A DNA stretch of 58,139 nt, the filler included, from Platydemus manokwari (taxonomy: Eukaryota), in the NCBI GenBank assembly GCA_037951405.1. It is 5 parts of 5 records of this genome, joined end to end, with 100 filler letters (N's around TTAATTAATTAA, not from the genome) between each part and the next. Parts side by side here need not be neighbours in the genome. Positions count along the whole stretch, not along the records: positions 22,007 to 35,592 come from JBBMOY011679178.1; 4 more parts are not named here. One strand, 5' to 3'. The number at the start of each line of letters is the position of its first letter. The stretch's first letter is position 1. Positions 161 through 58,130 of this stretch are shown here, piece by piece. Under the pieces are notes generated by a model. It saw only the letters and a list, made by a program, of their open reading frames with translations. It was not told the DNA's origin and ran no database searches. A program made the position numbers and the translations under genes.

Positions 161-656
161 ATCAGATTTTTTTACTTCCTAATATTATTTGAAGCACAAA
201 TGCAAAAAAGGTGTGAGCAAGATATCACTGACTAAACAGTCATTCAATTCCTAGATTCCCATTTCGTTGATGAAAATTGACTATTTTATTATGTTCTTCG
301 TCATCTGTGAAATGACGGGCTTAATTTAATTTAAATTTAAAATTCAGAATTTTTATTGCAATTCCTTCTCATCATCTGCAAATTAGCTTCGCTGATGGTT
401 TTTACTATCAATCAATCAAGTACATTTAAATGATATTAAAAGTAAAAGAAAGCAATTGACTAAAATCTTAATTAACTGGCATTCGAACAAATAGAATCAC
501 TTACAAAAAATATAATTCTGCGATTCGGAAACTGTAAAATAAAGTAATTATTTTGCTTTTAATAATTGTTTTCAAAAATTTTATTTGCATTTCTTTGATT
601 AACTTTTATCGAGCAATATTTAACTTGAATCCAATACAACTAAAGATTCATATCGT

Positions 657-1045
657 TGGGAAACCATTAACCGACTAGTGCTCTATTCAGATAGTGAAGA
701 AAGCGAAAAAGAATGGTCTCCCGTGAAAGAATAAAATAGCCGGTGTGAAACCTCTGCAGGCAATAGCAGAGGTAAACACATCGCAACTCACATCGACATT
801 ACACATAACTGCTCCAAACATTCAAAGCCCAAACAAAATGCTCCAGAGTTCAAAAAGACCACCGCACAAATGAAACTAAACTCAAAATGGAAAACATGGG
901 GAGTGAAGAAGTGCGGTGTGAATACAGATGTCTAGAAGTCAGTGAAAATTTCTATTGTACTGTCTATTCATAAACCCAACAATCATTCGACAAATTCCAA
1001 AAGCCAAGACATTGATGACATTTTGATCATGAATTTACTCTTGTG
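657..1045 (+). pseudogene. Copy 2 of the RLVLYSDSEESE ORF family, degenerate
   Basis: Reads WETINRLVLYSDSEESEKE...KWKTWG with in-frame stops. Nucleotide similarity to copy 3 continues (caaaatggaaaacatggg; gacaaattccaaa). Confidence 0.7.
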
Positions 1046-1642
1046 ATTATGTGATTATTTAACTCTTTGTGAACACTATTTGGTCTTTATGAACTGTTTT
1101 TACTAACTTGAAATTTCAATACATTCAATTGCCTTTGTAACGCCATACTGCGTGATTTAATATTATCAAATCTAATTGTGTTCAAATTATTGTTAATCAA
1201 CTGTATAAATAGAAATGATCACAATGTCAGGAAACTAATCGAGTACTTCTTAAATTTAAAACTCAATATTTTGAAAATGCTATTAATTTCTGAGGTTAAT
1301 TAGATTTGTTTTCGTAACAAGCTTTTGATTGAAGGATATTCTTGGTTTTTTAATATCAAATAAAAGACTTAATTTATTAATTTGGTTTAAATAATCATTG
1401 TAGGATGATTTTTCCAAATTTTATAAAGAAGCCCAATTATAATGAAATTACGAAAAATTATTTCAAACCTGACAGATTTGTTTAAATTCTGCCTAAAACT
1501 AAGTGCAAATTTAAATAATTTTTTTATCAAAGAATTTTTTTCGGCCTTACTTAGTAACTATAATTATTAAATCGATTCTTCTGACAAGAAATTTTCATTC
1601 GTAAATCGAATTGTTTTTTCATTATTTAGACGGCTGAATTAT

Positions 1643-4638
1643 ATGAGTTCAATATGGTATGAATATCTAGAAGAAACGGGCGGTGAAATCATACCATTAA
1701 GTTATTTTAAACATGTTTGCCGAAGCTTGGAAAAAAATCATGATTTTGAATCAATTGTGAATTGTTCTAAAAGTGAAATCCGCTTTGCTTATAATTATGA
1801 CAATGAATTCTGGTGGCCAGTGATAATTTCAGAACAATTGAGTGAAGGTTGGATAAAAATTGACTATTTTGGAATCGAATCCAGTGATAATTATTTATGG
1901 TGTGATTTAAAAACGAATAGAAATTTTATAAAATCCATCCGTTGGTGTCTAGAACGAAATAGTATTTTCAAATCACCACAAAGCGAATGTGAAATTAATA
2001 TTGATGCAATTTTAGAAGAAAATAGAGAAAAGGAAGATTTGAAATTGGAATATATTTACAAGAATAATTATGCTTATCAAACTATCAAGATAGGAGCTTA
2101 TTTAGAATGTTGGCTGGAGAATAGCGTAGGATTTGTTTGGCCGGTGAAGGTTTTGTCGAATGTTGGTGGTCGATTGAAAATGACATGGTTTGGTTGTGAT
2201 TCAACTAGCAATTCCAAACAAAATTCATCTGGAACGAACAATATGTTTTCAATGTTCTACTTAGATTATCGACTTCACAGCTTGGGTTGGGCAAGACTCA
2301 ATGGCTGGAAATATTCTCCGCCTTTGAATGTTGGAATTAATATTTCGATTTCTAATGTCGATACGTTCGTCAGAGGTAGTCCGAGTGCGTTTGCGATGGA
2401 TTTAAGTTGCGATAGAGAGATAAAGGAACATTTTTTTGAGGAAGGCTGGCAGATAGAGGCCGTCAATCCAATTGATCCCAGCAAAATTCATGTGGCAACG
2501 ATTCGATATGTGTTGAATAAGAAATATTTTCTTGTAGAGCTAGAAAAGGAGAACAAAGATAAAGCGATTAATATCACCAGCAACGACAACGATTCTGTCA
2601 TGTTCGCCGGATTCGGAGGTATGGCTGAGATTTTGCCCGCTAATACGTCAAGTATAAGTGGTTACTCATTAATTGGTCTCCATGGCAACACGTGGGATGA
2701 CCATTTAATGTCAAACTCTCCCCAAAAGTACGCACCGCATCTTGGGTATTTTCAAAATGGTGGCGGTGTCGATGGACATCAGGAAAACGTTTTCCTTCCG
2801 GGATGCAAGCTGGAAGCCGTCAATCCATATAATAAACAACAAATACACGCTGCAACGATTATTCGCGCAATGGAAGGCAGTCGGCTCGTATGGATAAGAC
2901 TAGATAGCGAGACTGATATGGGCGATTTTCTCGTCGATCCAGTGACAAGCACGGATATATTTCCTGTTGGTTGGTGTGAAATGGTTGGTCACCAGCTCAT
3001 TATGCCAACATCTTATTTGTCACACAATACCACGATATCTCCTGCTCCGTTCGATAATGACGATATCACGATATATTTTCATCCTCAATGTTTTCTGGGA
3101 CCATTCTTGAGCCGATCTATTGCCAGTGAAATATTGCCTCAATTTATCGGGCCCGGCCATTGTTTACCAGTTTTTAGGCAGCTTTTTCATCTTCTTCTCA
3201 AGGTAAATTGCATGTGTGTGTTTTATATATTGGTATTGGTGTCGATACTTTTTGATATATTGAATTTGGTGTTGATTATTATTGATATATTGGTATTGGT
3301 ATCGATATTTATTGATATATTGGTATTTCTGTCGATACTTATTGATATTGGTGTCGATATTTATTGATATTGGTATCGATACTTATTGATATTGGTGTCG
3401 ATATTTATTGATATATTGGTGTTGATACTTATCGATATATTGGTATTGGTATCGATACTTATTGATGTGTTGATATTAGTGTCGATTGCTATTGATATAT
3501 TGGTATTAGTATCGATATTTATTAATATATTGGTATTGGTAACGATACTTATTGATATATGAATATTGGTATCGATACTTGTTCATATTGATATTTAATG
3601 TTTTCGATTTTCACTCTTAACAAAATATCGTGTTCGCAGGTATCCCATAAACCCTACAAATTGATGCGTCTCCTACAGTTAGATCCATCTGATGACAGAC
3701 ATGAGCTTATGGCCACGATTGTGGTGCCTTGTCCGAAAAGCGAATGGGGCAATCGCAATAAACGATCGAATTGGCTAGTCGAGGTTGCAGTTCGCAAGCG
3801 AGCAATTGCTGGATTCTGCCGACAAACCGCGCTTTCTCTCGGTGCCTGTCCATCATTTATCAGCATTTATCCGCAACCAAATTGCCATCTCGCCTGTGAC
3901 GCTCGCATGGCAGCTAGAGCCGGTGAAAAAATGAGCCAACAGAGGAGAAAGCGATTGTTTCTCCGTCCACTGACATCGTTGGGTATTTCGTATCGTGAAC
4001 TGAAATCTCGTGTTGTGGGTGCCACTAGCAACAGTAGCAGCAATTCTGAGCTCGATTCAAGTGATAGAGAGGATCATCCGTCGGAACAGATCAAAACAGC
4101 TGCAGTTGAATCACGAATGTGCACCCGAGGGATGCGACTCGTCGTTTCCGATTCTCGCCGTAGAGCATCGAAAAGGCGAACACTCGGGTCAAATCTGAAA
4201 TTTGTCAAGGAATCCAAGTGCGATTCGCTGAAAATCGATGAAGACACTTTAGGAACATCAGATGGTTTAAGGCGAGAAAATCGCGGTCGAGATACTGTTA
4301 CCGAATCGATTATTGATGTGCGCGATTACGTGATAGACCCGACATTTCTGGCAGGTGACATCGAACGAGTTACGCTATCGTCAAATCCTCTCAACTGGAC
4401 CGTCGAGCAATTGACGGAATACTTGTCCGGTACTGATTGTCGTCAGCTTATCACCTGGCTCGCTAATGAAAAAGTCGATGGGCGGGCATTCTTGTTGTTG
4501 ACGCTCCCTGTTTTGAGCACGTTGTACGGTTTGCAGCTTGAAGTGGCGATTCGTTTGTGCAGGCATGTCGTGTCATTGAAGCGAGTGTTTGTCGAACAAT
4601 TCGCCGACATGCAGGAGTTGTTGCCAGATGATATCTGA
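1643..4638 (+). CDS. SFMBT: Scm-like with four MBT domains protein (MBT repeats + SLED + C-terminal SAM); join(1643..3202,3640..4638), ~852 aa
   Basis: MBT signatures (LHSLGWA, WQIEAVNPIDPSKIHVATI, KLEAVNP..HAATI..DIFPVGWC). SLED-like CFLGPFLS..LPQFIGPG. SAM NPLNWTVEQL..KVDGRAFLLL. Phase-0 intron aag|gtaaat (3203) to cgcag| (3639) joins the two long ORFs in frame (LLLK|VSHKP). Confidence 0.9.
3222..3596 (+). repeat. Intronic minisatellite, degenerate ~21-30 bp units (attgatatattggtattggtatcgatactt)
   Basis: Directly visible tandem units. They generate the spurious hydrophobic tail of ORF 1643..3367. Confidence 0.9.
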
Positions 4639-20234: not shown

Positions 20235-21241
20235 TTACAATCCAATTCCAGTTAAGTGAGCATCGATTTGTTTCAATTTCGGCAACAAAATTCGAACTTT
20301 TCTACGATAATTTGGATCTTCTTTTGTTCGATCTGCCGAATACCAAATAGGGTTTCGCTCGAAATAAACAGTGGACAATTTTTCTAAATTAACTAATTCA
20401 TCAATATCATTCCAATTTGACATGTTATTATCATTGAACCAGAACTCTTCAAGGACTTTCAGGTGGGACAGGTTCTCCAGTTTTGAAATACGATTAGCAG
20501 ATAAATCCAAAGTGGTCAACTTGAATAAATTGTCAAGATTTTCAATTTTAGAAATGCCATTATGGCTGAGATAGAGCTGTTCCAAATTGATCAGACCATC
20601 AAGACCTTCAATTTTGACGATTCTGTTTCCTTGCATACTCAGAAGAGTTAAATTAGTTAAATAATTTAAATTCTCTATTTTGGAAATTTTGTTCTTTCCA
20701 ATATACAATTGATTGAGATTTATTAAAGTGTCAAGATTTTGTATTTTTCGAATACCATTTGAACCGAGCTCTAACATGTCGATATTGATAAGAGTGTCAA
20801 GATTCTCAATTGTTTGAAGTTGATTGTTTACGAAATATAATTTCTTCAAATTTATCAGCATTTCAATGTTTTCGATTTTTTTTATTCGATTGAAACTTAA
20901 ATCTAATATTATCAGATTAGTCAAACTTTGTAAATTTTCAATTTTGGTTATCTGATTATCGTATAAATCCAATTCTTCCAGTGTATGAGCAACGGGTTCA
21001 AGATTTTCAATTATTTTAATCAAATTATTTCTCAAACAGATAGACTTAGCCTGAAAAAGTTATTTATAGTTTTTGTTTTAAAATTAATTTTAAAATTTAC
21101 TCTGACTAATTGTTCCAAATTTTCAATCTTTTCTAAACGTGCATGATTAAAATCAATTATTTCTGCTTGTGGATCTATAGATAATATTTCGACGTTTTCA
21201 TCTGAAATCACAGATTCACCAATTCCATTTTCGTCTGTCAT
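20235..21241 (-). CDS. PPP1R7: Protein phosphatase 1 regulatory subunit 7 (sds22), LRR protein; complement join(21241..21101,21050..20235), 318 aa
   Basis: SDS22-class LRRs (LEELDLYDNQITKIENL, LELGSNGIRKI, LSMQGNRIVKIEGL, LYLSHNGI) and LRR cap (TVYFERNPI..NYRRKV..LPKLKQIDA). A 50-nt phase-0 GT-AG intron (21100-21051) joins EQLVR|AKSICLRNN. Confidence 0.95.
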
Positions 21242-24826: not shown

Positions 24827-26015
24827 TCAAAATATTAATTTAAAAAAATTATGTTTCAATCCTTCTTTGGCAGTGATTCTAATCGTTGGGTTGGTAACAA
24901 GCATTTTCTTAATCTAAATGAAAATTTAATTCTTACTGACAGTTTTTAATAAAACATTTACCAAATCCAAAGCGTCCGGTGAAATATTTTTCCAATGGTC
25001 AGCGACAATTGGAAAAATTCCGGTCACGATGTTCTTATATAAAGCTGAGTCATTTTTAAATGGCGGATATCCAGTAAATAGAATGTACATGGTGACACCA
25101 GAAGACCACATGTCTGCAGATGTACTGGGTAAAGGCAATGATCTATTTTTGTAACGAGCAATCATCTCTGGAGGTAAATACAAAGGTGAACCACGAATAA
25201 CTGGAAATGGAAATTAAATTATTATGAAATATCAATAAACAAATATTACATGATCTCCGTTCAATGTCAGTATCGTAAACAGCGAATTCAAAGTCAATAA
25301 GCTTTATGTTGCATTCATCGTCCAATAAGATATTTTCCAATTTTATATCCAAATGCGTTAAATTTCTTTCATGAATAAACACTAAAGCTTGGAAAATTTG
25401 ATTCATAAATTTTCTGATGATTCGTTCAGAAATTTTACCAGTATTGGTTAAGAAGTTAAGCAGATCCCCTTTTGAATAACTGAATTCGAAATCAAAAATA
25501 GATTTAAAATGTACTACATTCAAGACTTACTAATCCTGGACAATCATTATATTCTTATCCGTCTCATAATAATCGTAAACATCGATTATGTATGGGCAAT
25601 TAGCACAACTTTTCAAGATTTCAAATTCATTTTTAGCATTAGCTTTTATTTCATCGGCTTTGGCACAATTCTCCAGTACATATGATTTCACTAGGAATGG
25701 TTTCTACAAATTATTGTTTATTAATTTACTTATATTTTTATCTTTGAATTATTATATCATTATTAGCAAAATTAATCTAGAGTTGAGTCATAATAATAGT
25801 GTTTTACTTACTTGATTTTTAATTTTATGGCAAATGTAAAGCACATTAAATTGTTTTTCTGTAATGATATCTGATATAATGTATTTCTTATGAAATTTAG
25901 CTTTCGAGTTGAAGATTCCTTTTATTTTCTTCAAATTCTCCATTCGTTTTAAATTGATGTAATTAATATGCTTTGGTTTAAGGAAATATTTTTCATTTAT
26001 AGAGATTAATGACAT
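24827..26015 (-). CDS. Divergent CAMK-group Ser/Thr kinase; exons 26015-25812, 25703-25531, 25479-25250, 25200-24962, 24913-24827 (~310 aa)
   Basis: Four GT-AG introns (108, 51, 49, 48 nt) give one uninterrupted 933-nt frame: FLVK, NEFEIL, HLDIKLENILL, IKLIDFEFA, GSPLYLPPE, DMWSSGV, GYPPF, ISPDALDL|IKKMLVTNPTIRITAKEGLKHNFF. Start codon uncertain. Confidence 0.85.
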
Positions 26016-26487: not shown

Positions 26488-26514
26488 TGTCACAAATGGT
26501 GACGAAAGTGATGA
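26488..26514 (+). promoter_or_regulatory. Putative LTR 3' end (TGTCACA) and primer-binding site (TGGTGAC...)
   Basis: tgtcaca-aa-TGGTGACgaaagtgat upstream of gag, with AATAAA and T-rich U5-like sequence before it. Only a partial match to a tRNA-Trp-type PBS. Confidence 0.4.
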
Positions 26515-27229
26515 GGAAGAGCACATACCAAAATAGTAAATACCTATAGAGAATAAAGGTCGAATACCAAAATAGAAATATCAAAAAGAAACATGAAATA
26601 ACCCTAACGACACATGTCCTGGAACAAGATAAACGTGAAAGAGAAAAAGGCTCAAGAAACAAAGGGAAAAAATAGATTTCAGTAAAAAGAAGGTTCCAAG
26701 CAAAAATATATACCCAAGATTTAAACCAAGAAGTAAAACACATTGGTAAATGGACAAATAGACTGCAAATCTGAACAGCTGAAGGAGAATCAATTCAATC
26801 TCAAAAGCAAGAAAACGTTGAAAAATTTGATATATTAAATAATTTTACTTTTGGGCAGGTAATATCGACTTCATACGTGTAACTGATGTCCTTTAGAAAA
26901 ACAATAATTCTGTAATAGTTATATGGAAGAAGTTTAAGTGAAGAAAGAACCATACAAGACAAGGAAGAACGGAAATCGTTTTATTTTAATGAAATTATCA
27001 TAAGTCAAATTTCGAAATTATGATGAATTCGTCCAAAAAGGTTGTGTATTGATTATTGTGGTGGTATATTAATTAATATACGCTATATTGGAGTCAGGAG
27101 GTTTGTTATTCATTATTATTCAATAATTGTTTAGTGAGCCCTCATTCGAACACTTTTACGATTATGTTTTCAGAGGACCAGGATTCAGAGAACCAGTCTT
27201 CTTCAGGTCAACAGTCAATTCAACACTAG

Positions 27230-27955
27230 ATACGACTGGTTCCGCAAGCAAGTTTTGCTGGTTGCCAAAAGCTTCCTGTCGAACAGTACGCTGGAGACCC
27301 AGTTGACTTCGTGGATTTTATGATTGATTATTTTATGTATGCATCCGCATACGTTTGGTCTTAAAAGGATGATGATCCAAAGAGTTTCTCTTTATTTAAA
27401 AGACACAGAAAGAGAAGCCTACAATTAAATCGACAGACGAAACATTGCCCAACGCACAGGAATGAAAGACGCCTTATCAGAGAAGCTAATCAGTGGTGAC
27501 GTTGGTCGCATTATCCGTCAAAAATTCTTCTCCAGATTGCAGAAAACAGGTGAAAGTGCAGGCTATTTTGAGTACCATCTATCAACACCTGCGGAAAAGA
27601 CATTCGGACCGAAAGCGGAGTGGCCAGCACAAACGCGAAAAGTGGTCAGGATCAATTTTTGAAAGGAGTGCATTAATACATTAGTACAGCGCTCAGCCTC
27701 GTCGATTATACCACCTACGGTGAACTCATCAAAAAAGCTATGATGGTGGAAATGAACTCCAAATCGATAATTCACCAGCCTGTCACATATGCCACAGAAA
27801 CAGATCTCTCTTTTATGGGTAAAATTGAAAGGCCATCACCCACGAAATCTATCGACAATACTTATCCAAAATCCACTCGATAATTCACAAAATTATGTCA
27901 ATCGTCAGTCAGCGACTCTCCAAAGAAGCTGCAAGGGGTGACGTGCTTTAAATAC
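27230..27955 (+). pseudogene. Ty3/Gypsy gag remnant
   Basis: EQYAGDPVDFVDFMIDYFMYASAYVWS..IRQKFFSRLQKTGESAGYFEYHLSTPAEKTF..FLKG. The RxQxxGES motif is typical of retrotransposon gag. Ends at the start of a Zn knuckle (GVTCFKY). Confidence 0.75.
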
Positions 27956-27959
27956 AATC

Positions 27960-28945
27960 GAAATGACGATTATGACAATAGTGATGAGAATTTTGATGAT
28001 GATGAGAGTAATATAAAATTTAGGAGTTGGAAAATAAAAGTGGAGACTTGTATGATACGTTTTGAGAAAAAAGTTTGGAATAAGGTGAGGAACAGCTGTA
28101 TAATTTCTAATTTATGCGGAATTGAAAATGAATTATGTTCGTTTATGTCGTCGTAGCTTTTGAGGAGTAGGTCACTTAATTAATTATTTGTGAAGGTAAT
28201 GACGGAAATGTTATATTTTATAGCAGTGTCTTATAAAGGAAAAAATTTTGAGATTTTTTTTGAAAATCGGGTAAGAAATTTGATTAAAGTAAAGCTAGAT
28301 TCTTTTTCAAGAGTTCGAGATATTAGAAGCCAAATTGTTGGAGGAGATGCCCCACTTACGTTTTTGAATCAAATTCTACGTGATGATGATTATGTGATGT
28401 ATAGGAGAATGGAGGAACTCTGCAGAAATGTTATCGCAGGTGACTACGCCTTTAAAGGAAGAGCCATTGAATTTTAGCGAAATAGTGAAAATTTTGGAAA
28501 TTATCAAGAAAAATATATCAATGTTTCGTAATTTGAGTGAGTTAATATATTTGTTAGTACTGTATATCGAACAATTTTTACCTATTAATTCTACTTTCAG
28601 AAGTATTTTTACATTATGTGGGAAAATGTGAAAAAGGAAAGTTTAAATCCACCTCTGTTTGAGATCAGTTTGATGAAATCAGGAGTTGAAATGGGGAATT
28701 TCAAAGAGCATTGGTGTACAAAGGCAAAGAGAATCTTAAGAGAGATTTCAGAAAAGTTGAGAAATGAAGTAGTTATTATCTTATCATATTGTAGTCAAAA
28801 TTTAGATGATGAATATTTGTTGAATTACAAATGTGTTACTGAAAAAGCACATAAAATTAACGTTGCAGTTCATTACGAGCAAGGCATTATTAATGAGAAC
28901 GTAGATTATGAACGAGCCAATTTGCATAAAAATGATTTTACATAG
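27960..28945 (+). pseudogene. Unknown ~320-codon decayed ORF (ORF X) between gag and glycoprotein
   Basis: ORFs 27938-28156 and 28190-28477 share a frame and chain by frameshifts into 28428-28631 and 28616-28945. No motif recognised. Confidence 0.55.
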
Positions 28946-29137
28946 GACATTTAAGAGGCAGGATTTAACTTGTCACTTCATCAAGATTTTGATACTTCTA
29001 ATATTAATCATAATCATACAGACATTGTTATTTAAAAGAAAAACATGGAATTTAATGAAATTAAACTAATTAATAATAAAAATTGAATATATTTTATGAA
29101 ATCAAAAAATAGGAAAAGTAAAATATTAAGAAGTGGA

Positions 29138-30900
29138 ATGTTGTCTTTAAACTTTTGGAGCAAAGCCCTAATTTTTATGATGATAATAATATTCGGCATC
29201 GTTTGCGTACCATTGCTCTAAAGCAGATATGGGAAAAATTCATTGATTGATTGAACGGAATGACCAGAAGTATATCTGATCAAAATCTCTAGTGGTGAAA
29301 ATGAGCATTATTTTTTATATCAGGAATCGAATTTTATTAGAGTGCAAGTAAACGAATGCGTCTTTAAGAAGACAACTTTTGTTTTTCACTGTGCTGATCA
29401 TGATGAAGGCGATCTCCAGGCCATTAGAGATAGACACTGACAACTGCGAATCCGCTTTTCAAACTGAAAAAACAAAAATAGACACTAAAATTAAATTATC
29501 AGAAAAAAGAGGTTATATCATGAGGGAATCCATTGTAGTTAGAGGATCCGTAGAAGCAGATGGAGAATGTAAGGGAGAACCAGATAATTTTTCTGGACAA
29601 ATTGTTGATAAATCTGTAGTAATTTAGGAATATTCCGTCGAAATAAGACAATGGGAAAGCGTATTTGATGAACTGAATAGAGAAATGCAAACTCATCCAT
29701 TATGTAACTCAAAACACAAAAGTTGTCAAACCGGTGAGTCAGTATTAGTATATAACGAAAGGTCACAAGACTGTAATTTGGTATTTTTAAAAGAAACTAA
29801 TTTAATGGAAGTTAAGGGTGAACAAGTAAATGAAGTTATTGACAACTTACCTTCCGATCGAACACCTAAGGGCAAAATAAGGCCTTTCCAGTAAAACCGA
29901 AACGAACCCCAACTCTTTTGATATCAACTTTGACTGAAGACGGAATGTGCTTTATCAGAATAGATAGTGGCAAAACGTGGTAAATTTGTGTATCAGAACA
30001 ACTATAAAGGATTATATGTATCGAAAACAAAACTAGAAAGTGCTAAAGAAAAAGTCTATAACGGTGATATATAATTAGCACAATATTTTAATAATAATTT
30101 AGACTATACTTTTCATTTCGGACAAAATACAGTTGCTAATATATATCAAGAAGTTATATTAAACGATTGCAAACTAAACCGAGAAATTTTTCGCAATAGA
30201 ATGGCGATTGTGTAAACAAATCCAAGTGCAGCAGCGCTTATGCTGGTTGCCGAAAATGGAATATTTGGTTGCGTTTTAGGTGAGGCACTATATAGCTACA
30301 AATGCAAAGCAATCTAAGTCCAAATAATGAAACACGAGACTTGCACATACGAACTTCCAATCAATGTCGAAGGAAAACTACATTTTATGGAACCGACAAC
30401 TCGAATCATCTTAGAAGAAGGAACAAAACGAAAGAATTTAGAATACAAACCTATTTTAGCACCGATATACAGAATAACGACCGATCAATGGATTGCGCTG
30501 CCAAATAGAAATATAGTTAGAACTAAATTGAAATATTTAATAAATTTTACAGCTCTAAATAATTTAGCTGCTACTGGAATGTATTCACCGTAGAACTTGG
30601 AGGAAGTCAGACGTAACCTACTTTTCCCTTCAAATAGAGAACGAGTAATAACAGAATTAGTTAATACTATTCTACCAAAGAGAAGCCGTCAAGCCAATTA
30701 TGAATACTTGCTAGGCGTATATAACAATATAACATTGTAGGCAGTTTGTAGAAATTAATTTTAGGACGTATTCCATTCTTAGCTAAATTTTTTATAATCA
30801 ATCATCGATATGAAGAAATGAATAATATAAAATCTGAAATGAGAAATAAAAGGAAAGTAAGATTTAGTGCATCTTCGATTTCAGAAGACACTATCATATG
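29138..30900 (+). pseudogene. Chuvirus (Jingchuvirales)-type envelope glycoprotein, near full length, pseudogenised
   Basis: Colinear motifs: signal-like MLSLNFWSKALIFMMIIIFGI, AYHCS, VQVNECVFKKTTFVFHCADH, RGSVEADGECKG, IYQEVILNDCKLNREIFRN, GEALYSYKC, CTYELPI..FMEPTTRII..GT..PILAPIYR..W, LAATGMYSP*NLEEVRRNLLFPSNRERV. Confidence 0.82.
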
Positions 30901-31399
30901 ATGAAAATAATGATTTTAACGCAAGGGACGATAAAAATATTATCACAAATTCAGACATATCGGTACCAAATTGGGAAGATTAACGAACCTTATTAAAATC
31001 AGAGCGTTTACAAAAGGAAAACAAATCACATTTTAATGAATTCCTGCCGGTAATATCTGAATGAAAAAAATTAATTAAGAAATTTCGATTTTTCTTTCTC
31101 TTACGGTGACATTAGAACAATAATAATAATAAATAAATAAATAAAATTAATCAAACTTAATTCCACTACGAGCAATGAGAATCAGTGGACTGCTCGATGA
31201 AAATTAATTTGGATTTAAAGTTTCTTTTATTATGTTCAATGCCAGAGAATGTCAGATTTATAAATGGTAAAATATGAATTAAAAATATATTGAATATTAA
31301 GCTCGTATTTCAGTATCAAAAAAATTTGTTGAAAAATGTATTATTAATATATACAACAAATAGAAGTAAAGAAGGAAGACGGCAACAGGGAGAGAAAGG

Positions 31400-33880
31400 A
31401 TTGACAAATGTATCAAACTGCATATAGTAGCCAACGTAAAAAAATTGATTGTAACGGTACAGATTGAAATGTTATGGGATTCTGGTGCATCGATAACAGT
31501 AATGAATGAGGCCAATTGGAGACCCGCAGATTAAAAATTCGGATGTTCGATTAGCTGGGTATTCTCCAATACACACAAATCCTGTCTAGGAAAATGAGGA
31601 TCCCAATAGTTTGGAACAACAAAATTCTAGTAAAGGAGATCATTGTATTAAAAGAAATATCATCAGGATTTATCGGAGGAGTTGATATGATGAAGACTTG
31701 CGGAATAGTCCTTGCGGGGATAAAATCAATTGATGCCGAGGATATGGGAAAGAAATACTGCGAACAAGACAGAATCGAAATGGCACTGAAGAGTATTGCT
31801 GATAAAAACGATATTTCATTGAATAAATGTATAAAAGAAAATGGCTCAATTTTTATGGTTTCTCGGTTCGATTTGGGACTAACAGATTTGGTGAAGCACG
31901 AGATCCGTACAAAATGGTAACCTATTGCTTAAAATCCCAGAATGCAGTCAATAAATTTAGAAACCAAAATTCATGAATTGATAGAAAATCTTCTTGAAAG
32001 AAATGTCATAACACCTTGAAAGAGCCCTTAGAACTCTCCTTCGGTCGTGGTTCCTAAGATGGATCGATCAGGCTGTTTAGACTTCAGAAAGTTAAACGAA
32101 CAGACTGAGGAGTATTCTTTTCCAGTACCTGATATCCACACGTTATTGGACTCAGTGTATGGAGCGACAGTTTTCACCACGATAGATTTAGGCCAAGCAA
32201 ATTATCAGGTCGAACTTGAGGAAGATTTTAAAATGAAAATGGCGTTCAGCACTAGAACTGGGCAGTCCTGTTTTAACAGACTACCTGTTGGATTATGTAC
32301 CGCGCCAGAAAGTTTTCAGTGTCTAATGAATACTATATTCAAGGACTTGATTTACAAGGGAGTTCTGGTTTATCTGGACGATATTTTAGTGTATGGAAGA
32401 ACGGTAAAGGAACACAATGAGAAACTTGAAAAGGTATTCAGGTTGAATAAATCACCAGGTTTGAAAATCAATCCCGAGAAATGTATTTTTGGCACTAGAA
32501 AATTGAATTCCCTGGGTCATACGGTCAGTGCAGATGATATAAACTAATGACAACAAAGTAAAAAAGATTAAGGAAGCAATTAGACCTGGTTGCATTACTC
32601 AGTTGAGGTCGTTCCTAAGATTATGCAATTATTACAGAAAATTTATCAAGGATTAGGCATTAATTACGGCTCTGTTATATGCAATGATGACTGGAAGTGA
32701 CAAGAAATTGGAGTGGACTACAGAGTGAGGAAAGTTTTGCAAACCTTAAGGAGCTATTATGCACTGCTCCAATTTTGGCCTTTCCGAATCCAGACATCGA
32801 CGCTGGTTTCGGAGTGATTGGGGGCCTTCTAATCCAGGTGGATGACAATGAAAAAGAGAGAGTAGTAGCCTTTGGTTCTAGAACTCTTAACAGTCACGAA
32901 AAAGAGCTTTTGTCAATCCACGAGTTCACTATGCATTTTAAACATTATCTATTGGGAAAGAAATTTGTGACTCGCACCGATCACAGAGCCTTGACATCCA
33001 TGAAGAAAACTAACAAACCGATTAACCTTCAATTTTAAACATGGTTTGTAAACTTATCCGGATACAGTTTCGAACTTCAATTTATTACAGCCCTGTTATA
33101 TGCAATGATGACTGGAAGTGACAAGAAATTGGAGTGGACTACAGAGTGTGAGGAAAGCTTTGTAAACCTAAAGGAACAATTATGCACAACTCCAATTTTG
33201 GCTTTCCCAGATCCAAACAAAGAGATTATTTTAGATACCGACACTTGTTTTGGAGCGATTGGGGGTGTTCTAAGCCAGTTGAATGATAGTGGAAATGAGA
33301 GAGTATTAGCGTATGCTTCTAGAACTCTTAACAGTCATGAAAAAGTATTTGTGTCACGATGAAAGAGCTTTTGGCAATTCATGAGTTCATTATGCATTTT
33401 AAAGGATCAGACTTTCAAGGATATGCAAAACATTTTGTTCACAGTGCTTAATTCAGAACCAAGATGCTAAAGAAGGTAAACCATTGAGTCGATTTATTAA
33501 TGTTGTCGATCATTCAATTGCACATAATGACGAATTAAGGAATATTTAACTAAAGGATACTGTCGTTAGTTCTATTCTAAAATGGTTACAGAAAACAGAA
33601 ACATGAGTCAATTTAGCGGTCAGATAAACAGTTTAGAGAAATACCAATTGTTAGAATATATGATGTTGTATAATGAGAATTGTAAGAATTGAATTGTTGT
33701 CCCAGAGATTCATTCGAAGAATATAACGAGATACCTTCATGAGTAGTTGTGCCATATCGGTAATAAGAAATTGGACGATTACATTCAAAAGATTTACTTC
33801 TGGACAAATATGTCACGAAGCATTGAACACGAGGTACGGAATTGTGATATTTGTACTAAACGGAAAGTATACACTAGACG
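31400..33880 (+). mobile_element. Ty3/Gypsy pol remnant (PR-RT-RNaseH-INT N-terminus), frameshifted, RNase H region duplicated
   Basis: Protease LWDSGASITV. RT LDFRKLNE, FNRLPVGL, YLDDILVYG. RNase H ILDTDTCFGAIGGVLSQ and TRTDHRAL. Integrase Zn region IVVP..LHE..HIG..CDIC. Domain order is Gypsy/BEL type and the motifs are Gypsy-like. Confidence 0.92.
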
Positions 33881-34149
33881 GTAATTGGACACTATGAATT
33901 AATTCCAATAGAGAAAATAATGGGGATTGAATACGAGGAGACAATTCTAAATGGAATAATAATGGGAAAGTGACTGGAATCCCAATGATAATGATTAAGC
34001 ATATCAAAATAGCAAGAGACGAAGGAACGATAGAAACAATTGGAATAACAGTGAATATAAGAACAACATACCAAATTAGAGAAAAGAAGTCTCATCGAGA
34101 AAAGTTAAAAGAGTTGGGGTTTTGAAAAAATCAAATGTTAAAAATCCAA

Positions 34150-34959
34150 TGTGACAATAACCCGGATATATCGAATCCATACTGTATATTTTGTGTATGT
34201 CATTTTTTGTTATTTGAGTATGATATTATGATCAAAAGCTCGTATTTGTATTTATGTACAAAAGTAGCAATTTTTATTTTAATAATATTCATTATTCTGA
34301 AAAGTCTTTAATGGTTATTTATAGCTAAAAGTAAAAGAATAAAACAATAATAAAGAAAAAGAAATAAAATAAAAACTATTGCAAGAGACAAAATTTTATT
34401 TAAAATAAGTTCCTAGTAACTAATAAATTACCCGCATTAAATGTCAAAAATTCACCCTAACAATTTCCACACAATGAAAGTCCTTATGTCAAAGTTAATG
34501 ACCCGCTTTAAAAAATCCTTTGAAATAAAATAATAAGACCTGCATTTTAATGGAAATTAGATCTGAATAAAATCAGTATAAATAGGTTCATAACATCAGT
34601 AGCATTGCTCCATTATTAGAAACCACTAGTGATAGTGCGTTGTTATACGACGACGAAACATTCAAGTTACCAGCCGTGAAAGCCAGTCAGATTCTCGCCA
34701 ATATTCTCAGAAGTGGATACCAAGTTGACATTCTATTCTGAAAAATCATAGCCCAAAATAGGAGAAGTAACAGTAAGATCGATAACTGTAAAATCACACA
34801 TTATTTATAATAACCGCATATTCTCCCTATTTATCGGGTTAATCCCAACCATCTTGAACAATCGGTTTTACTTCTCTTGTGAGCATTATAACCTGAGCTT
34901 TTTCCAGAATAAGAGAGAAGAATTAAAACCGCATTAGGGCTTCAAAATAGATTGTCATA
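34150..34959 (+). repeat. LTR-like segment (TGTGACA...TGTCATA) with internal TATA-like gtataaatagg
   Basis: Starts with the reverse complement of the 26488 terminus and lies 3' of pol. No clear identity to the 5' LTR candidate was seen. Confidence 0.3.
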
Positions 34960-42184: not shown

Positions 42185-42959
42185 CCGTAATCACCCATGT
42201 ATAATGCCCCCCTACTTTTAAATTTAAAAACTGGTCTTTTTGACATACCCAAGCATAACGCTCCCCTAAGTTTTCAAATTTTTCTGCTAAAAAATTAATA
42301 TTTTTTGTGAATAAAATTTTATTTCAGACAATTACATTTTCTGCAATTCAATCAGAATCATTACTATCACTAAAAAGTTCATGAAACTCTTCCGGAGTCA
42401 GTCTTGCGTCTGTATCCTAGTTAGGGTCAACTTGGTCTTCATCTTCTTCATTTTCTTCGTTTGGGTCTTCTTTTCAGAGTTCATCATCTTCTGTGCCATC
42501 AAAATTGTTTGAGATTCCAGTCTTTAGGAATCCCTTAACAACCATCTGTGATGGAATATCATCCCAGGCTTCTGTGACCCAAGTAGAGACTAGAGACAAG
42601 CTAGGTTTCTTGAAGTTTCCATTTTTGGTCTGTTCTTGCTGGCCAGAGGCCATCCAATCCATCCATTTTTGCCTCATTCTGTCCTTGAATGGTTTGTTCA
42701 GAACGACATCCAGCGGCTGCAGGATAGATGTCAAGCCACCAGGAATCACTGCTTGGGTGGTGTTGAGAGAAGTACATTTTCTCTTTACTTTGTCAGTTAT
42801 ATGTGCTCTGAACTGATCACACACTAAAATTGATTTCTTCAAGAGAGCTCCGGGCTTTCTATTCCTATATACTTCTACATACTCAAGTATAATACTCCCC
42901 CCATTTAAAATGTTGAAATTTCAGACGAAAATGGGAGTATTATACTTGGGTGATTACGG
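42185..42959 (-). mobile_element. Internally deleted pogo-family transposon with both TIRs, TA TSDs and C-terminal DDE_1 fragment (42474-42842)
   Basis: TA|ccgtaatcacccatgtataatgcccc ... gggagtattatacttgggtgattacgg|TA. Protein LVCDQFRAH..VIPGGLTSILQPLDVVLNKPFK..GFLKTGISNNFDGTEDD. Confidence 0.93.
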
Positions 42960-48500: not shown

Positions 48501-49564
48501 TGATAGAAGAATAAATTCAACCATTTGAGCTATATATATATATATATATATTGAAGGTCATTTTGATGGTTTCGATAATTTTGACAGATTCATCACATAC
48601 TCCAGAGAATTCTGCATGTCATCAGATTATAATTTAAAGAAAATTTTGAATGGATAAAAGCTTTTTTCTTTAAGCATATAAATTCCACCAATTCTATTCC
48701 AATGTTATAATTCACTGTATATCATTAATTACTTAATTTTCAAACTCAACGCACTAAAGTTACAAAATTTTATATTTAAAAGTTATTATAAAATAAAAAA
48801 ATGTTTATTTACCTTCTTTTTCTAATTTTACCAGCATATTATTTTCAGCAAATTACGAGTTATACAATAATTAATTTTTTAAACACAAGTCAGTTATTAT
48901 GTAAGCGCTCGAATTAGTTAAAGTCCGCTTTGATCTCTTTTGCAACATAACATCATTTCTTTTTTGGTCAAAACTATACAAAATTATACAAACAAATCTG
49001 CAACATATAAACCAATTATTGAAAAGTTCAATTGATTTACAATACTAATTTAATAAGAATATTGGGAAAATGTATAATTTGGATGAAAGGGAATTCATCA
49101 GAATTAGTAAAAAAATAAATAAAAATCTTGGAATCCTATCGCAATATATTTTAATTTTGATTCCTATTATCTGCAAATTCATAGTTAAAACAATAAAAGA
49201 AATAAAAGTCATCAACGACACATCAGCTTGCAGAAAAGCCATGAATTCGGGATTCTGGACAGAAGAAATGAAACCATTTGAATATTGGTATATATTAATA
49301 CTAATTTATAATTATTTTATAATTAGAAATGTGTTTTAAACTATGTTGTATGTATTTTTTCATCAAACTTATTTAGTAATACTAAAGAATTATTAAAATT
49401 TAATAATCATGTCAGTAATGAGTAAAAAAATATTAAATATGGCAAACTTTTGCTATCGACGGAAAGTAAAATTGAATCTTTAAATTAAAATTTTTTGTTA
49501 TGCGACATTGTTAACTTATGACTTCGTATAAAACATTATATACATAATTTATTTGTAATTCTAG

Positions 49565-50495
49565 TCTAAATAAAAGAATCCCGAAATCGAAAGTCCGTTC
49601 TAGGAATAATAATACACCTTATTCAAACAGTTATAGGCGAGAAAAATTTACAGAAAATGACGAGGCGCAAGCATTAGAAGAAATTATGACAGATGTTGAC
49701 AATGGTAAAATAAGCAAGAAATATTTTAAAACTGAAGAATCTTTATCTAAACTCATTGATAAAAGGGCGATGAAAATAGCTGCAACTAAAAAGGAAGACA
49801 TGAAAACCAGACAATATAATACAATTTTCAAAGATCCCATGAAATATTTCCTCCGTCATTATGATTTACAAAAATTCAAGCAAAATAAAAAAGTGAAACT
49901 CTCAAAGAAATTAATCGAAAACTTACTAATTGACACATTAAACTCAGATGGCTTATACAAATATTTTCAGACAATTTATGGTTCAGATGAAAGTAAAAAT
50001 GATATTTTAAAAATTATTTTGAACGATTTGTCATCGAATGAGAAACAATCTTCTGTTTATCCTATTGATTTTACTTCGGAATTTTATCAATTAAATAAAG
50101 ATAAGTATTTGAAACCACCTGATATTATCTTTGAGGATGCTGATATATCAGAAGTTGATCATGATTCATATAACAATAAATTTGATCTCAGTCCATGTTT
50201 TGATATTGATTATCAACCACCAATACTTCCAACTAAATTTCCGATATTTACTTTCCACGATTCAAAGGGCAAACTGATAACTATTCCTAATTGGGAGCTA
50301 GATAATATCCTGAACAAATATTACTACTTACCTAAACCCGAAGAAATCGAAGAACCAAAAATGTTTAAACGTAAAACAATTGATGAGTTTGGAAACTTAC
50401 AAATGGAATTAGCTAAAAAACGTGAACAAAGCAGAAAGAAAGAACAAATGAAAAAAACCAAAATTAAGGCAAGAATGAAAATGAAGCAAAAGTAG
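49565..50495 (+). CDS. Uncharacterised protein, probable terminal exon (~310 codons), basic coiled-coil C-terminus
   Basis: Frame stays open upstream of ATG 49686 back to a ttctag acceptor at 49564. AATAAA follows the stop. Upstream exons not resolved. Confidence 0.7.
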
Positions 50496-54180: not shown

Positions 54181-54299
54181 CATTTTATGATAATAAAGAC
54201 ATCATTGGTTTCCATCAGAATTTATTGTTTAAAAATCGCAAGTGTTTTTCGAATATTTAATTATTTTTAATATAACTTTCCTCTCCCGTTATTTTTGAG

Positions 54300-54850
54300 A
54301 TCTTAGCTATTCAATTCTTCAAGATTTTGGCTGTCCCTAAAAATCAAGAAGCGCTTGATGTGGGCTTAAAAATGTCAAAATTCCATGAGGACCTTCATAA
54401 CGATCTCCATTCTTCTTTTTATTGTGTGGTTCTTTCTTCACTGAAACTTCTTCTCCAACCTCGAAAATTCTAGGACCTTTTTTTTTACCATCGAATTTCC
54501 TAAAGTTTGTGGCTACTGATTTTTGCTGATTTTTCGTTTCTTTGATGACCTGGTCGTGGTTTTAGTCATTATTTGTCCACCATTAGCAACATCAATAACA
54601 ATTTGTTCCAGAGGACCAAACTCTTCCCTTGGAATCATAATTTCTTTAGTTCGTCCAGTGTATACCTTCCGTTTAGCATAAATATCACTATCCCGTATCT
54701 CATGTTCGATGTTACGTGACATATTTGACTTAAGTAAATCTTTTGAATGCAATTGACCAATTTATTATTACCAATATGGTAAAACTCCTCATTAAGATAT
54801 CTCGTTAGTTTCTGTGAATGAACATCTGGCACAACAATTCGCTTCTGCTG
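54300..54850 (-). mobile_element. Gypsy integrase remnant (Zn-binding region + GPY/F tail, core deleted), same family as the 33.7-kb copy
   Basis: KRIVVPDVHSQKLTRYLNEEFYHIGN..GPLEQIVIDVA, then DRYEGPHGI. A purine tract follows. Clear nucleotide similarity to 33690-33880. Confidence 0.88.
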
Positions 54851-55255
54851 AGAAAACATAGAACGACTAGTGCTCTACTCAGACAGTGAGGAGAGCGAAG
54901 AAGAGAAAACCCCATTCACCATTAACTCTTATAGTAAATGAAGTCAAAAGGTAGCTGAAGAGAAGACTCAACAACAACAACAGCAACCACCTCAAGAATC
55001 CGTGTTCAAAAAACCAAGAACACCCCCTATAAGACAACGAAAACCCGCAACACCAATTTCCATCATACTCGTAAAACCAAACCCAAAATGGGAAACTTGG
55101 GCCACCCAAAACTGGTGTGTAGATTTGGATGCCTGATGTCTACAAGAATTCAAACTGTAATCTGCGACAAACCCGACAATTCGGCAATCTAATTACTACA
55201 ATTCAGACAAATTCCAAAGATGATTTGATAAACGATTTTATAATATGATTCTTTT
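54846..55255 (+). pseudogene. Copy 3 of the RLVLYSDSEESE ORF family
   Basis: C*ENIERLVLYSDSEESEEEKTPFTINSYSK*..KWETWA. Confidence 0.7.
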
Positions 55256-56177
55256 GAACATTTCAATATTTAATGATGACTTGATCTGATAAATGATAAT
55301 CTGACTCTTTCGAACATTGTATTTTTTGATTGTATATTGTAAATAACTGTAATATTGTTATGTAACATTTTATGATATGAATTATGTGAAAAATAAATGA
55401 TATTAAAATACTTGGATGGAAAATATTAATAAAATATATATATATGAAATAAAAAAACACATATTATTATTTATAAAGGAATAAGGCGACAAGTAAAAAT
55501 AAATATAATATTTAATTGTAAATGTTAATTATTTTCTAATAAAGTTTTTAAGGTTAAATAATTTAATTTAAAATTTAAGTTCAAGAACTTTTGAAAATAT
55601 AAACATTTAGAGTTTAAAGTAAAATAATGGTTAAAATTTTGTAAAAGTGATGGAAAATCCTAGGTACAAAGTACCGAATCTCAGCATTTATATAAGCTGA
55701 TGGATTTCATTACAATTCACTCTTAAAAATTTGGTAATTAGAAATTGATGCGAATCACTAAAGTGAAGCAGCCCCTAACATTTTTGGAACAAACTTCTGA
55801 AACTATAAAATTATTTTGGTAAAGCTTAAATAGTATCTATATAGCTTGACAATAAAATCAATATTTAAAATCTTACACTTGATTTAACTCTGAAGAAACC
55901 AGCTTCGGAGTTATATTATAAAATATATATTAAAGAATAATAAGGAGCAATGGTCGAGTTCTCACGATCTCAGTGAGATAACCATACCAAATTGTTATTT
56001 TGAGTTAAACTGATTGAGCCAATTTTATTGAAAATTTGTTTTTATCAATTATAAATAAAATTTATAAAGAATTTGTGTGTTGTTGATTTATTTTGTATAT
56101 CCATAAAATAAAGGAACTCAAGCCGTTGAGTTGGTTAAAAACAAATAAACACCTCATACAACCCAACACGTTTATTC

Positions 56178-57206
56178 ATTCTCATTATACATCACCATAT
56201 CTTTAAACAACTCATATTTCTATAAACTGTTAAAATGTTTGCTTTTCTTGACCGCTGAATTGACTCGTTTCTGTTTCTGTAACCATTTTTGAATGGAACC
56301 CAAGACATTATTTTCTTGTTGAATCTTCCTTATTTAGTCATTATTTGCTATTGAATGTTCGACACCATTAATAAACCGACTTTTTGTTTTACCTTCTGGT
56401 GCTGAGTTAACTAATGTGAACAAAATGCTTCGCCTATCCTTGAGAGTCCATCTATAGTTTCAAGATCTGATCCCTTCTCATATTGAAGCTCGAAATTAAA
56501 TCCGGATAAGTTTGCGAACCATATTTGAAACTGAGGGCTAACTGGTTTGCTAGTTTTCTTTATGTATATGTGACAGTCACAAATTTCATTCGCAGTAGAT
56601 AATGCTTAAAATGCACAGTGAACTCGTGGATTGCCAAAACCTTTTTCATGACCGTTAGGAGTTCTAGAGCCATAGGCTACTACTCTCTTTTCCAGTATCA
56701 TACAACTGACTTAGAACGCCGCCAATCGCTCTAAAACTAGCGTCGGTATCTAAAATCATCTCTTTGTTTGGATCCGGAAAAGCCAAAATCGGAGCTGATC
56801 AAAATTGTTCTTTTAGGTTTCCAAAACTTTCTTCACACTCTGTAATCCACTCCAATTTCTTGTCACTTTCGTTCATCATCGCATATAACGAATCCGTAAT
56901 TAATACATTATCTTTGATAAATCGTCTGTAATAATTACATACTCCAAGGAACGACTTTAACTGAGCAATGTAACCGGGTTTTATTGCTTCCTTAATCTTT
57001 TTCACTTTGTAGTTATCAGTTTCTATATCTTCTGCATTAATATTATGACCGAGGAAATTCAATTTTCTTATTCCAATAGAACATTTTTCTAGATTGATTT
57101 TCAAACCTGATGATTTAATCAACCTGAAAACCTTGTCGAGTTTCTCATCGTGTTCCTCTACTGTTCTTCCATAAACGAAAATATCCTCCAGATCAGTGAT
57201 TTCCAA
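56178..57206 (-). mobile_element. Gypsy RT C-terminus, RNase H and linker remnant (second copy)
   Basis: LEDIFVYG..GLKINLEKC..FLGH..LKSFLGVCNYYRRFI..DTDASFRAIGGVLSQ. Homologous to 32370-33680. Confidence 0.92.
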
Positions 57207-57789: not shown

Positions 57790-58130
57790 AGTAGAAAACC
57801 CAAGAAAAAGACAAAATCTAAGAAAATAGTGAACATGAAAAATTGCCATCTAAAATAACATTTAATAGATCGAAAATATTTTCTGAAGATGTTATTGCTG
57901 TACATATGAATAAATCGAGTATTTTATGTGATAAATTTAATTATATAGGGTTCAAAATTTTAGAATATGCAAAATTAGTTATGCGAAATTTTGTATATAA
58001 TGAATTGAAAATATATTTATCAGGAAAATATAAAGTTCATTATTCGGACATGGATAGTTTGTTTATAGAGTTTATATTGGATAAAAATGAAACCTTGGAT
58101 GATATTTTATTTAAAAAAATGAATTTCTAG
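57790..58130 (+). pseudogene. Polinton protein-primed PolB fragment (motif C region)
   Basis: IFSEDVIAVHMNKSSILCDKFNYIGFKILEYAKLVM..VHYSDMDSLFIE (cf. IFxENLVAIHMxK..KPIYVGFxILDLSKxLM..YxDTDSL). Confidence 0.85.

Follow-up and report, generated by a model that had tools for sequence, protein, structure and literature searches.

In the flatworm Platydemus manokwari (assembly GCA_037951405.1), a Gypsy locus carries an envelope glycoprotein gene between gag and pol. Does it represent a new enveloped retroelement lineage, or do two elements merely adjoin? The locus lies at positions 26,488 to 34,959 of a 58,139-nt stretch joined from five parts of the assembly, referred to here as the window. A first-pass annotation had proposed a new lineage, formed by independent capture of a negative-strand virus glycoprotein, with a nested chimera as the alternative. 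The gene order that it described, namely gag, a reading frame termed ORF X, the glycoprotein (G) and a pol with protease (PR), reverse transcriptase (RT), RNase H (RH) and integrase (IN) parts, is confirmed on the plus strand, but the long terminal repeat (LTR) end and primer-binding site (PBS) read at its left edge are not, since no repeat pair was found and depth there is near single-copy. We consider it rather likely that the locus is a mosaic of two decayed elements, in which the remnant of a dead flatworm gag-env-pol Gypsy element of the Burro and Smed-errantivirus kind, truncated behind env, lies beside a foreign pol. This adjoining pol probably derives from another Gypsy family, one of greater abundance. 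Gypsy elements with a gB-type env between gag and pol are an already described kind, as presented in PMC6431247 and PMC13524379, so the window adds one copy and not a new lineage. The copy is dead: it contains stops and frame breaks and lacks both a membrane anchor and an integrase core.

The envelope glycoprotein and the block it belongs to

The identity of G was assessed by profile searches. Translated as one frame with X at stops, window positions 29460-30779 match PF24664 (Monjiviricetes_fusion) at an E-value of 2.1e-34 and 118.9 bits (cut-off 27). A profile built from 79 relatives found G solely at this locus among 582 six-frame tiles of the window and, when compared with PDB, matched herpesvirus gB at E-values of 0.002-0.2. 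The PF24664 and gB matches are in line with membership of the class III (gB-type) fusogen family, and the chuvirus-like assignment made earlier stands. The decayed frame, estimated at first pass as 550 or more codons, can be followed for ~575, with a hydrophobic stretch near its start that would serve as signal (Table 1). Frame breaks occur near 29200-29240, 29400, 29890, 29975 and 30720, and stops are also present. Most of the motif series cited for chuviral G remains readable (GSVEADGECKG, GEALYSYKC, CTYELPI, FMEPTTRIILEEGT and LAATGMYSP..FP), although VxQC is altered to VNEC and xYDC is left solely as AYHC, off the main frame. A search of the ESM Atlas with the G relative P0001 gave no usable match.

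Relatives of G were collected by a full HMMER search of 1.84 billion representatives, which returned 637 proteins at E<=0.001 and 17 at E<=1e-30; these are ENA/JGI records, one of them mislabelled bacterial. In a Pfam scan of all 17 best relatives, nine carry protease and/or RT after G in the same protein, and RT follows G in four (P0123, P0124, P0130 and P0136). Further full G-PR-RT-RH-IN proteins are P0139, P0272 and P0427, and Gag or a zinc knuckle precedes G in P0127, P0137 and P0140. In a quick unrooted tree of 31 rows, window G falls within a 13-row clade with P0123, P0124, P0272 and P0427 (SH-aLRT 100) and in a different clade from DUF5641-linked G (P0180). Identity is 33-36% with the G proteins carried by retroelements and 20-30% with the stand-alone ones. 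Window G thus nests among retroelement-borne G, away from the stand-alone (unnamed) rows, which leaves independent capture from a negative-strand virus unsupported; being unrooted, the tree gives no direction of transfer. The same placement does not fit a stand-alone Chuviridae endogenous viral element, whose G would be nearest to that of free viruses. A word-indexed search yielded one G relative among 2,276 candidates, and G or pol queries against viral, metagenome and prokaryote contigs gave zero confirmed related loci.

Some of these relatives are unusual in their own right. P0123, an Env-Pol polyprotein of a retroelement (2,627 aa), is recorded as a hypothetical protein from a metagenome-assembled genome of Flavobacteriaceae, likely through eukaryotic contamination. 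The polyprotein P0272 is 4,844 aa long and contains ankyrin repeats as well as about seven repeats that resemble a protease. Weak, sub-cut-off Bcl-2 matches (E 0.001-0.2) stand just before the Env signal, as in Burro, in P0122, P0125 and P0140, and by eye in P0134.

From a knuckle at the end of gag and a second knuckle remnant before pol, it had been suggested that G arrived in a 3.4-kb block inserted into one gag-pol. By tblastn, the Gag of P0128 aligns over 27378-27751 (E 9e-7) and that of P0140 over 27339-27608 (E 0.005); a Pfam scan of the window gag gave no match. A profile made from the Gag-Env linkers of four relatives has ORF X as its single significant match among the 582 tiles (E 1.7e-7). 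Single-sequence Pfam and PDB searches with ORF X found nothing significant, and part of ORF X gave only leads below 0.9 in the ESM Atlas. When the linker profile with the window piece was compared with PDB, 40-odd of 47 matches were to ubiquitin-like (UBL) proteins (UHRF1-UBL, ubiquitin, NEDD8), all weak (E 0.015-1.4), and the top two rows were PP2A scaffold chains, the best UBL standing at E 0.015. Env lies directly 3' of gag and a linker whose ubiquitin likeness is itself weak.

A single frame runs through the C-terminal half of gag, ORF X and the beginning of G, and in it they contain 2, 9 and 4 stops, respectively, against 6-44 in other frames; for ORF X the count is 9 per 339 codons versus 25 and 44. 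Downstream frame breaks and the spacer obscure the remainder. In the nematode elements termed NERVs, gag-env-pro-pol is reportedly one continuous reading frame. A paralogous contig with 76 differences spans ORF X into G (28668-29190). Because the relatives share the linker domain, gag matches theirs, the common frame has few stops and this contig bridges the parts, gag, ORF X and G are one native block and not an insertion into gag-pol. The second remnant, the peptide KCIKLHIVAN at 31405, does not represent a knuckle. Among Pol proteins, the closest start ~10-25 residues ahead of LWDSGAS and have no knuckle there, their alignment starts from ~31445-31463, and a frame break lies near 31460, just before the protease. 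Most likely, the peptide was read off frame.

Comparison with described elements

In the survey of Chary and Hayashi (eLife 2026, PMC13524379), errantiviruses of Nematoda, Bryozoa and Platyhelminthes are described as having gB-type env only, arranged GAG-ENV-POL, and the Chuviridae-like glycoprotein of mosquito BEL/Pao elements is reported beside gypsy pol as well, in 114 arthropod elements. Nine flatworm elements are listed there, among which Smed_1-6 and Pcro_1-2 fall into a single clade by RT. Smed_errantivirus_1 and _2 of that survey share with the locus a gB-type, Chuviridae-like env upstream of pol and a flatworm host, and window G appears to be of the same gB type (class III, PF24664) as in flatworm GAG-ENV-POL and Burro-like elements. 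Window G and the env of Smed_errantivirus_1 are identical at 58 of 125 ungapped residues (~46%, counted by eye), while the survey's table gives 32-36% between Smed_1 and Smed_3-6 env, below that value. Both Smed elements are intact and occur many times over (45 and 215 listed copies), whereas the window copy is dead and without LTRs and membrane anchor, and its adjoining RT stands apart from the RTs of the polyproteins related to G.

Burro (GYPSM1), a planarian giant Gypsy described by Arkhipova and Yushenova (2019, PMC6431247), shares the order Gag, ubiquitin-like (in Burro Ubi2/SUMO-like) domain and env ahead of pol. The Burro env, in frame between gag and pol, is said there to match mononegavirus fusion glycoproteins, and decayed Burro fragments are reported from Dugesia japonica. 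Burro exceeds 30 kb and has a polyprotein near 5,000 aa with MATH, BCL-2, BIR and ankyrin domains (PMC6431247), whereas the gag-env block of the window is ~3.7 kb and gave no BCL-2 or MATH match in Pfam scans. The NERVs (Sacco et al. 2022, PMID 35550022, as cited in PMC13524379) likewise have env before pol in Metaviridae, with nematode hosts. Anakin (Dezordi et al. 2020, PMC7642597) bears a chuvirus G of the same glycoprotein superfamily, but its carrier is BEL/Pao and its hosts are mosquitoes. For arthropods, PMC10084718 describes pieces of Gypsy next to chuvirus G, with no clear case of capture, and does not treat the present kind. Troyka, given in PMC12440569 as a single Gag-Pol with no env, was dropped from the comparison.

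The flatworm host is borne out by one gene of the window. Its leucine-rich-repeat gene encodes PP1 regulatory subunit 7 (sds22/PPP1R7); the best two named matches are flatworms, and in a 26-row tree it groups at 99/96 with these two, the sole named flatworms in the tree.

The adjoining pol and its junction with env

The PR-RT-RH-IN order with an H2C2 integrase zinc finger places pol in Ty3/Gypsy (Metaviridae). Of the integrase annotated at first pass, the zinc finger was recovered (Integrase_H2C2, E 3e-11) and the core was not, since pol homology stops at 33881. DUF5641 and the Pao peptidase are markers of a BEL/Pao-type pol; neither was found in the scanned pol pieces or in 120 listed RT relatives, in trees that held no named BEL RT. 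We attribute to chance the sole match in 33880-34959, that of 33976-34251 to one Pol (E 0.002 with 309 protein queries). Pol is a patchwork, with a doubled RNase H, no integrase core and three separate pieces of its family in the window. One piece is the stray fragment at 26917-26982, whose direct protein match is weak (E 0.02) and whose DNA partner, 54399-54453, lies within a stretch aligned to residues 935-1026 of Pol P0274. Another is a second decayed copy at 54292-57193 on the minus strand, which runs from RT to the integrase end at 76-87% DNA identity and is split by ~1.3 kb of other DNA at 54846-56178, with no G profile match nearby. Beyond pol, 34490-34859 is another repeated stretch, with a summed depth of ~580 and no partner in the window.

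If pol and env were of one lineage, the window RT should fall among the RTs of the polyproteins related to G. G and RT trees, which had been proposed earlier as a check, placed G with Env-Pol polyproteins and RT with stand-alone Pol. The best relatives of the RT are 22 proteins, most of ~1,000-1,050 aa, that begin at the protease; PF24664 occurs in 0 of the 120 listed RT relatives (581-2000 aa, longer proteins lying outside the search). Window RT is 45-56% identical to this stand-alone Pol clade, which holds it at 100/99 in a 49-row tree, versus 38-42% to the RTs of the Env-Pol relatives. Holding it with the five nearest Env-Pol RTs (P0123, P0124, P0272, P0427 and P0130) was rejected (p-AU 2e-6), as was holding it with all seven (p-AU 1.7e-4); the constraint groups were taken from the G search, though chosen after a first tree. 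A nested chimera had rightly been named as a possibility, and its seam is likely between G and pol.

Abundance was compared as summed contig depth at 80% likeness in one public run, X1, a measure that is no copy number. Just upstream of 26488 depth is single-copy (15, and 42 in the bin holding 26488), and the terminal site read there is probably outside the element; no repeat pair flanks the locus in the window. Depth is 15-26 in the left flank, 575-4,250 across gag, ORF X and G, and 11,700-103,000 in pol. Pol exceeds G in depth by a factor of 30-100, and even where G is deepest among the positions listed it reaches ~7,700 versus up to ~170,000 for pol. The AT-rich spacer between env and pol has no protein match, and no listed paralogous contig or joint crosses it. 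Because RT is rejected from the Env-Pol clade, pol is so much deeper and the spacer is single-copy, pol is probably foreign to the gag-env block. Among the Pol proteins of the window RT's clade, 18 of 22 are on contigs shorter than 5 kb, and 14 of the 15 listed members of one Pol cluster are on contigs of 4.3-4.6 kb.

Several points weigh against a mosaic. Env and pol lie on the same strand and in the right order, the protease following the env piece after only ~470 nt, and depth is alike on both sides of the spacer (930-3,570 at 30765-30887 and 2,800-4,000 at 31339-31461), as would be seen if both belonged to one subfamily. Contigs of 8.2-9.2 kb, room enough for gag-env-pol, carry a few of the Pol proteins closest to that of the window; by size, none of these contigs was shown to be shared with 18 G-bearing proteins and their clusters. 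G's closest relatives, P0001 (47%) and P0133 (61%), are on contigs of ~1-2.5 kb, too short to show a pol. In the RT tree the window sequence stands on a long branch (0.9). The Smed RTs in print lay outside that tree, so that we infer their grouping with the Env-Pol set, and GAG-ENV-POL elements are not one clade in the survey (PMC13524379). Run X1 contains the stretch and may be the source sample of the window, its short contigs seldom bridge repeats, and its depths and paralogous contigs are those among the rows listed.

The collinearity of env and pol and the similar depth on both spacer sides would fit a recombinant family, in which a gag-linker-env module of Burro type acquired the pol of a far-removed Gypsy clade, as a separate reading frame, and then spread. 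The locus would be one of its old copies, now decayed, and the env-pol spacer would hold an insertion private to this copy. Such a recombinant is also favored by the scrap of integrase end, from the same pol family, that lies a short way 5' of gag, as it would if copies stood in tandem or were nested in one another, and by the 8.7-8.9 kb contigs on which the nearest Pol relatives (P0274/P0394/P0395 and P0278) are found. However, the depth ratio, the lack of a listed bridging contig, the mostly short contigs of the pol relatives and the patchwork of pol itself, with RNase H copies 76% alike, speak against it, and the pol family is abundant enough for chance adjacency. We regard a recombinant family as possible but unlikely. 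It is equally doubtful that the locus has caught an envelope exchange between clades, with the module swapped onto the pol of a normally compact, env-less Gypsy clade; such exchange is called rare in the 2026 survey (PMC13524379). If true, it would mean that a gB-type envelope module is movable between distant Gypsy lineages inside a host.

An assembly error could also have joined two repeats, since the scaffold is gapped and repeat-rich and the two exact spacer contigs overlap by just 21 nt, beside a simple repeat. Yet these contigs, free of differences and at single-copy depth, cover 30936-31208 and 31188-31488, each from the spacer into one block. The env-pol junction therefore exists in X1, and an error of this kind is very improbable. 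Fresh, independent capture of a chuvirus glycoprotein, in a 3.4-kb block dropped into one gag-pol at the zinc knuckle, is hardly credible and largely refuted: the PF24664 match and the degenerate knuckle start near 27945 would suit it, but gag and ORF X match G-bearing polyproteins, G is closer to retroelement-borne than to stand-alone G and nests among the former, and the second knuckle is an off-frame run-up to the protease.

Under the favored mosaic of a dead gag-env remnant and a foreign pol, the intact relatives indicate how the element may once have worked. One Gag-linker-Env-PR-RT-RH-IN polyprotein would be made, and an internal signal sequence would thread Env into the endoplasmic reticulum and be cut by signal peptidase. 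The ectodomain would be luminal, and the membrane anchor would leave Gag and PR-RT-RH-IN on either side of it, both cytosolic; this topology is suggested because P0123, P0124, P0128 and P0427 have hydrophobic stretches at either end of the ectodomain. The element's protease would free Gag and PR-RT-RH-IN, and particles bearing Env would have a class III fusogen with which to spread from cell to cell. The window copy may have lost its LTRs and own pol after insertion, and deletion or nested insertion may then have joined it to a 5'- and 3'-truncated pol of the family with three pieces in the window. None of its gag, env and pol proteins can be made. No RNA dataset was listed as containing the window stretch, which has no bearing on expression.

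On this most likely reading, Burro/Smed-type gag-env elements are shown in one more flatworm genome, and the locus warns that gene order within one contig can mislead. How a membrane protein in mid-polyprotein is processed, and whether particles are infectious, are questions for the whole kind, for which a dead copy is unsuited.

Further features of the window

Table 1 Features of the locus and of the surrounding window
Feature	Position	Strand	Basis or remark
TGTCACA-AA-TGG site	26488..26503	+	No partner repeat; near single-copy depth
Stray integrase C-terminus fragment, family of the downstream pol	26917..26982	+	87% over 55 nt to 54399-54453, E 2e-12
Decayed gag of the env-bearing lineage (capsid region; degenerate zinc-knuckle start near 27945)	27168..27975	+	tblastn; start and knuckle read from sequence
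ORF X, Gag-Env linker, in frame with gag C-terminal half and G signal	27976..29137	+	Profile; frame count
Weaker ubiquitin-like repeat in ORF X	28277-28396	+	Linker profile
Ubiquitin-like domain in ORF X	28703-28870	+	Linker profile
Decayed gB-type (PF24664) envelope glycoprotein G	29138..30865	+	~575 codons; Pfam, profile, tblastn, frame reading
G hydrophobic signal stretch	~29165-29221	+	Hydrophobicity
G ectodomain	to 30713	+	Followed by anchor gap
G main membrane anchor missing	~30715-30728	+	~45 residues of P0122 (682-724) without counterpart
Short second hydrophobic/tail piece of G	to 30865	+	After anchor gap
Env block continuation, probable cytoplasmic tail/linker	30866..31050	+	Paralogous contig with 25 differences over 30809-31039
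AT-rich spacer (GC 0.23), likely seam of two elements	31051..31338	+	Depth 16-17 at 31052-31133 and 31298-31338
Decayed Gypsy pol of abundant family, integrase core missing	31339..33881	+	Pfam, self-comparison, protein alignment
Protease, LWDSGAS motif	~31463-31590	+	Motif
RT (RVT_1, E 9e-24)	32032-32547	+	Pfam
RNase H, two copies 76% alike (RT_RNaseH, E 7e-28)	32659-32942 and 33080-33403	+	Pfam, self-comparison
Integrase zinc finger (Integrase_H2C2)	33633-33881	+	Pfam
Host MBT-repeat/SLED gene	1571-4638	+	Two long ORFs; 30-nt tandem repeat between, 3192-3641
sds22/PPP1R7	20235-21059	-	274-codon single stretch
Protein kinase domain	24926-25526	-	Two ORF pieces in different frames; spliced gene or pseudogene
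DDE_1 transposase fragment	42474-42920	-	Pfam E 5e-20
315-codon ORF	49548-50495	+	No convincing Pfam match
102-codon ORF with YSDMDS motif	57822-58130	+	No Pfam match

The window is AT-rich, gapped eukaryotic DNA with host genes, among them those for an MBT-repeat protein and the leucine-rich-repeat protein described above; no tRNA genes were detected in it and no Rfam match was found. We take the MBT-repeat/SLED gene to be SFMBT-like and the DDE_1 fragment to be of the pogo/Tigger type, and the YSDMDS motif of the 102-codon reading frame is, in our view, reminiscent of Polinton B-family DNA polymerases. A short repeat occurs at 7-108, 655-712 and 54845-54946; two of its copies are inverted, 550 nt apart, and the third (54845-54946) borders the DNA inserted into the second pol copy.

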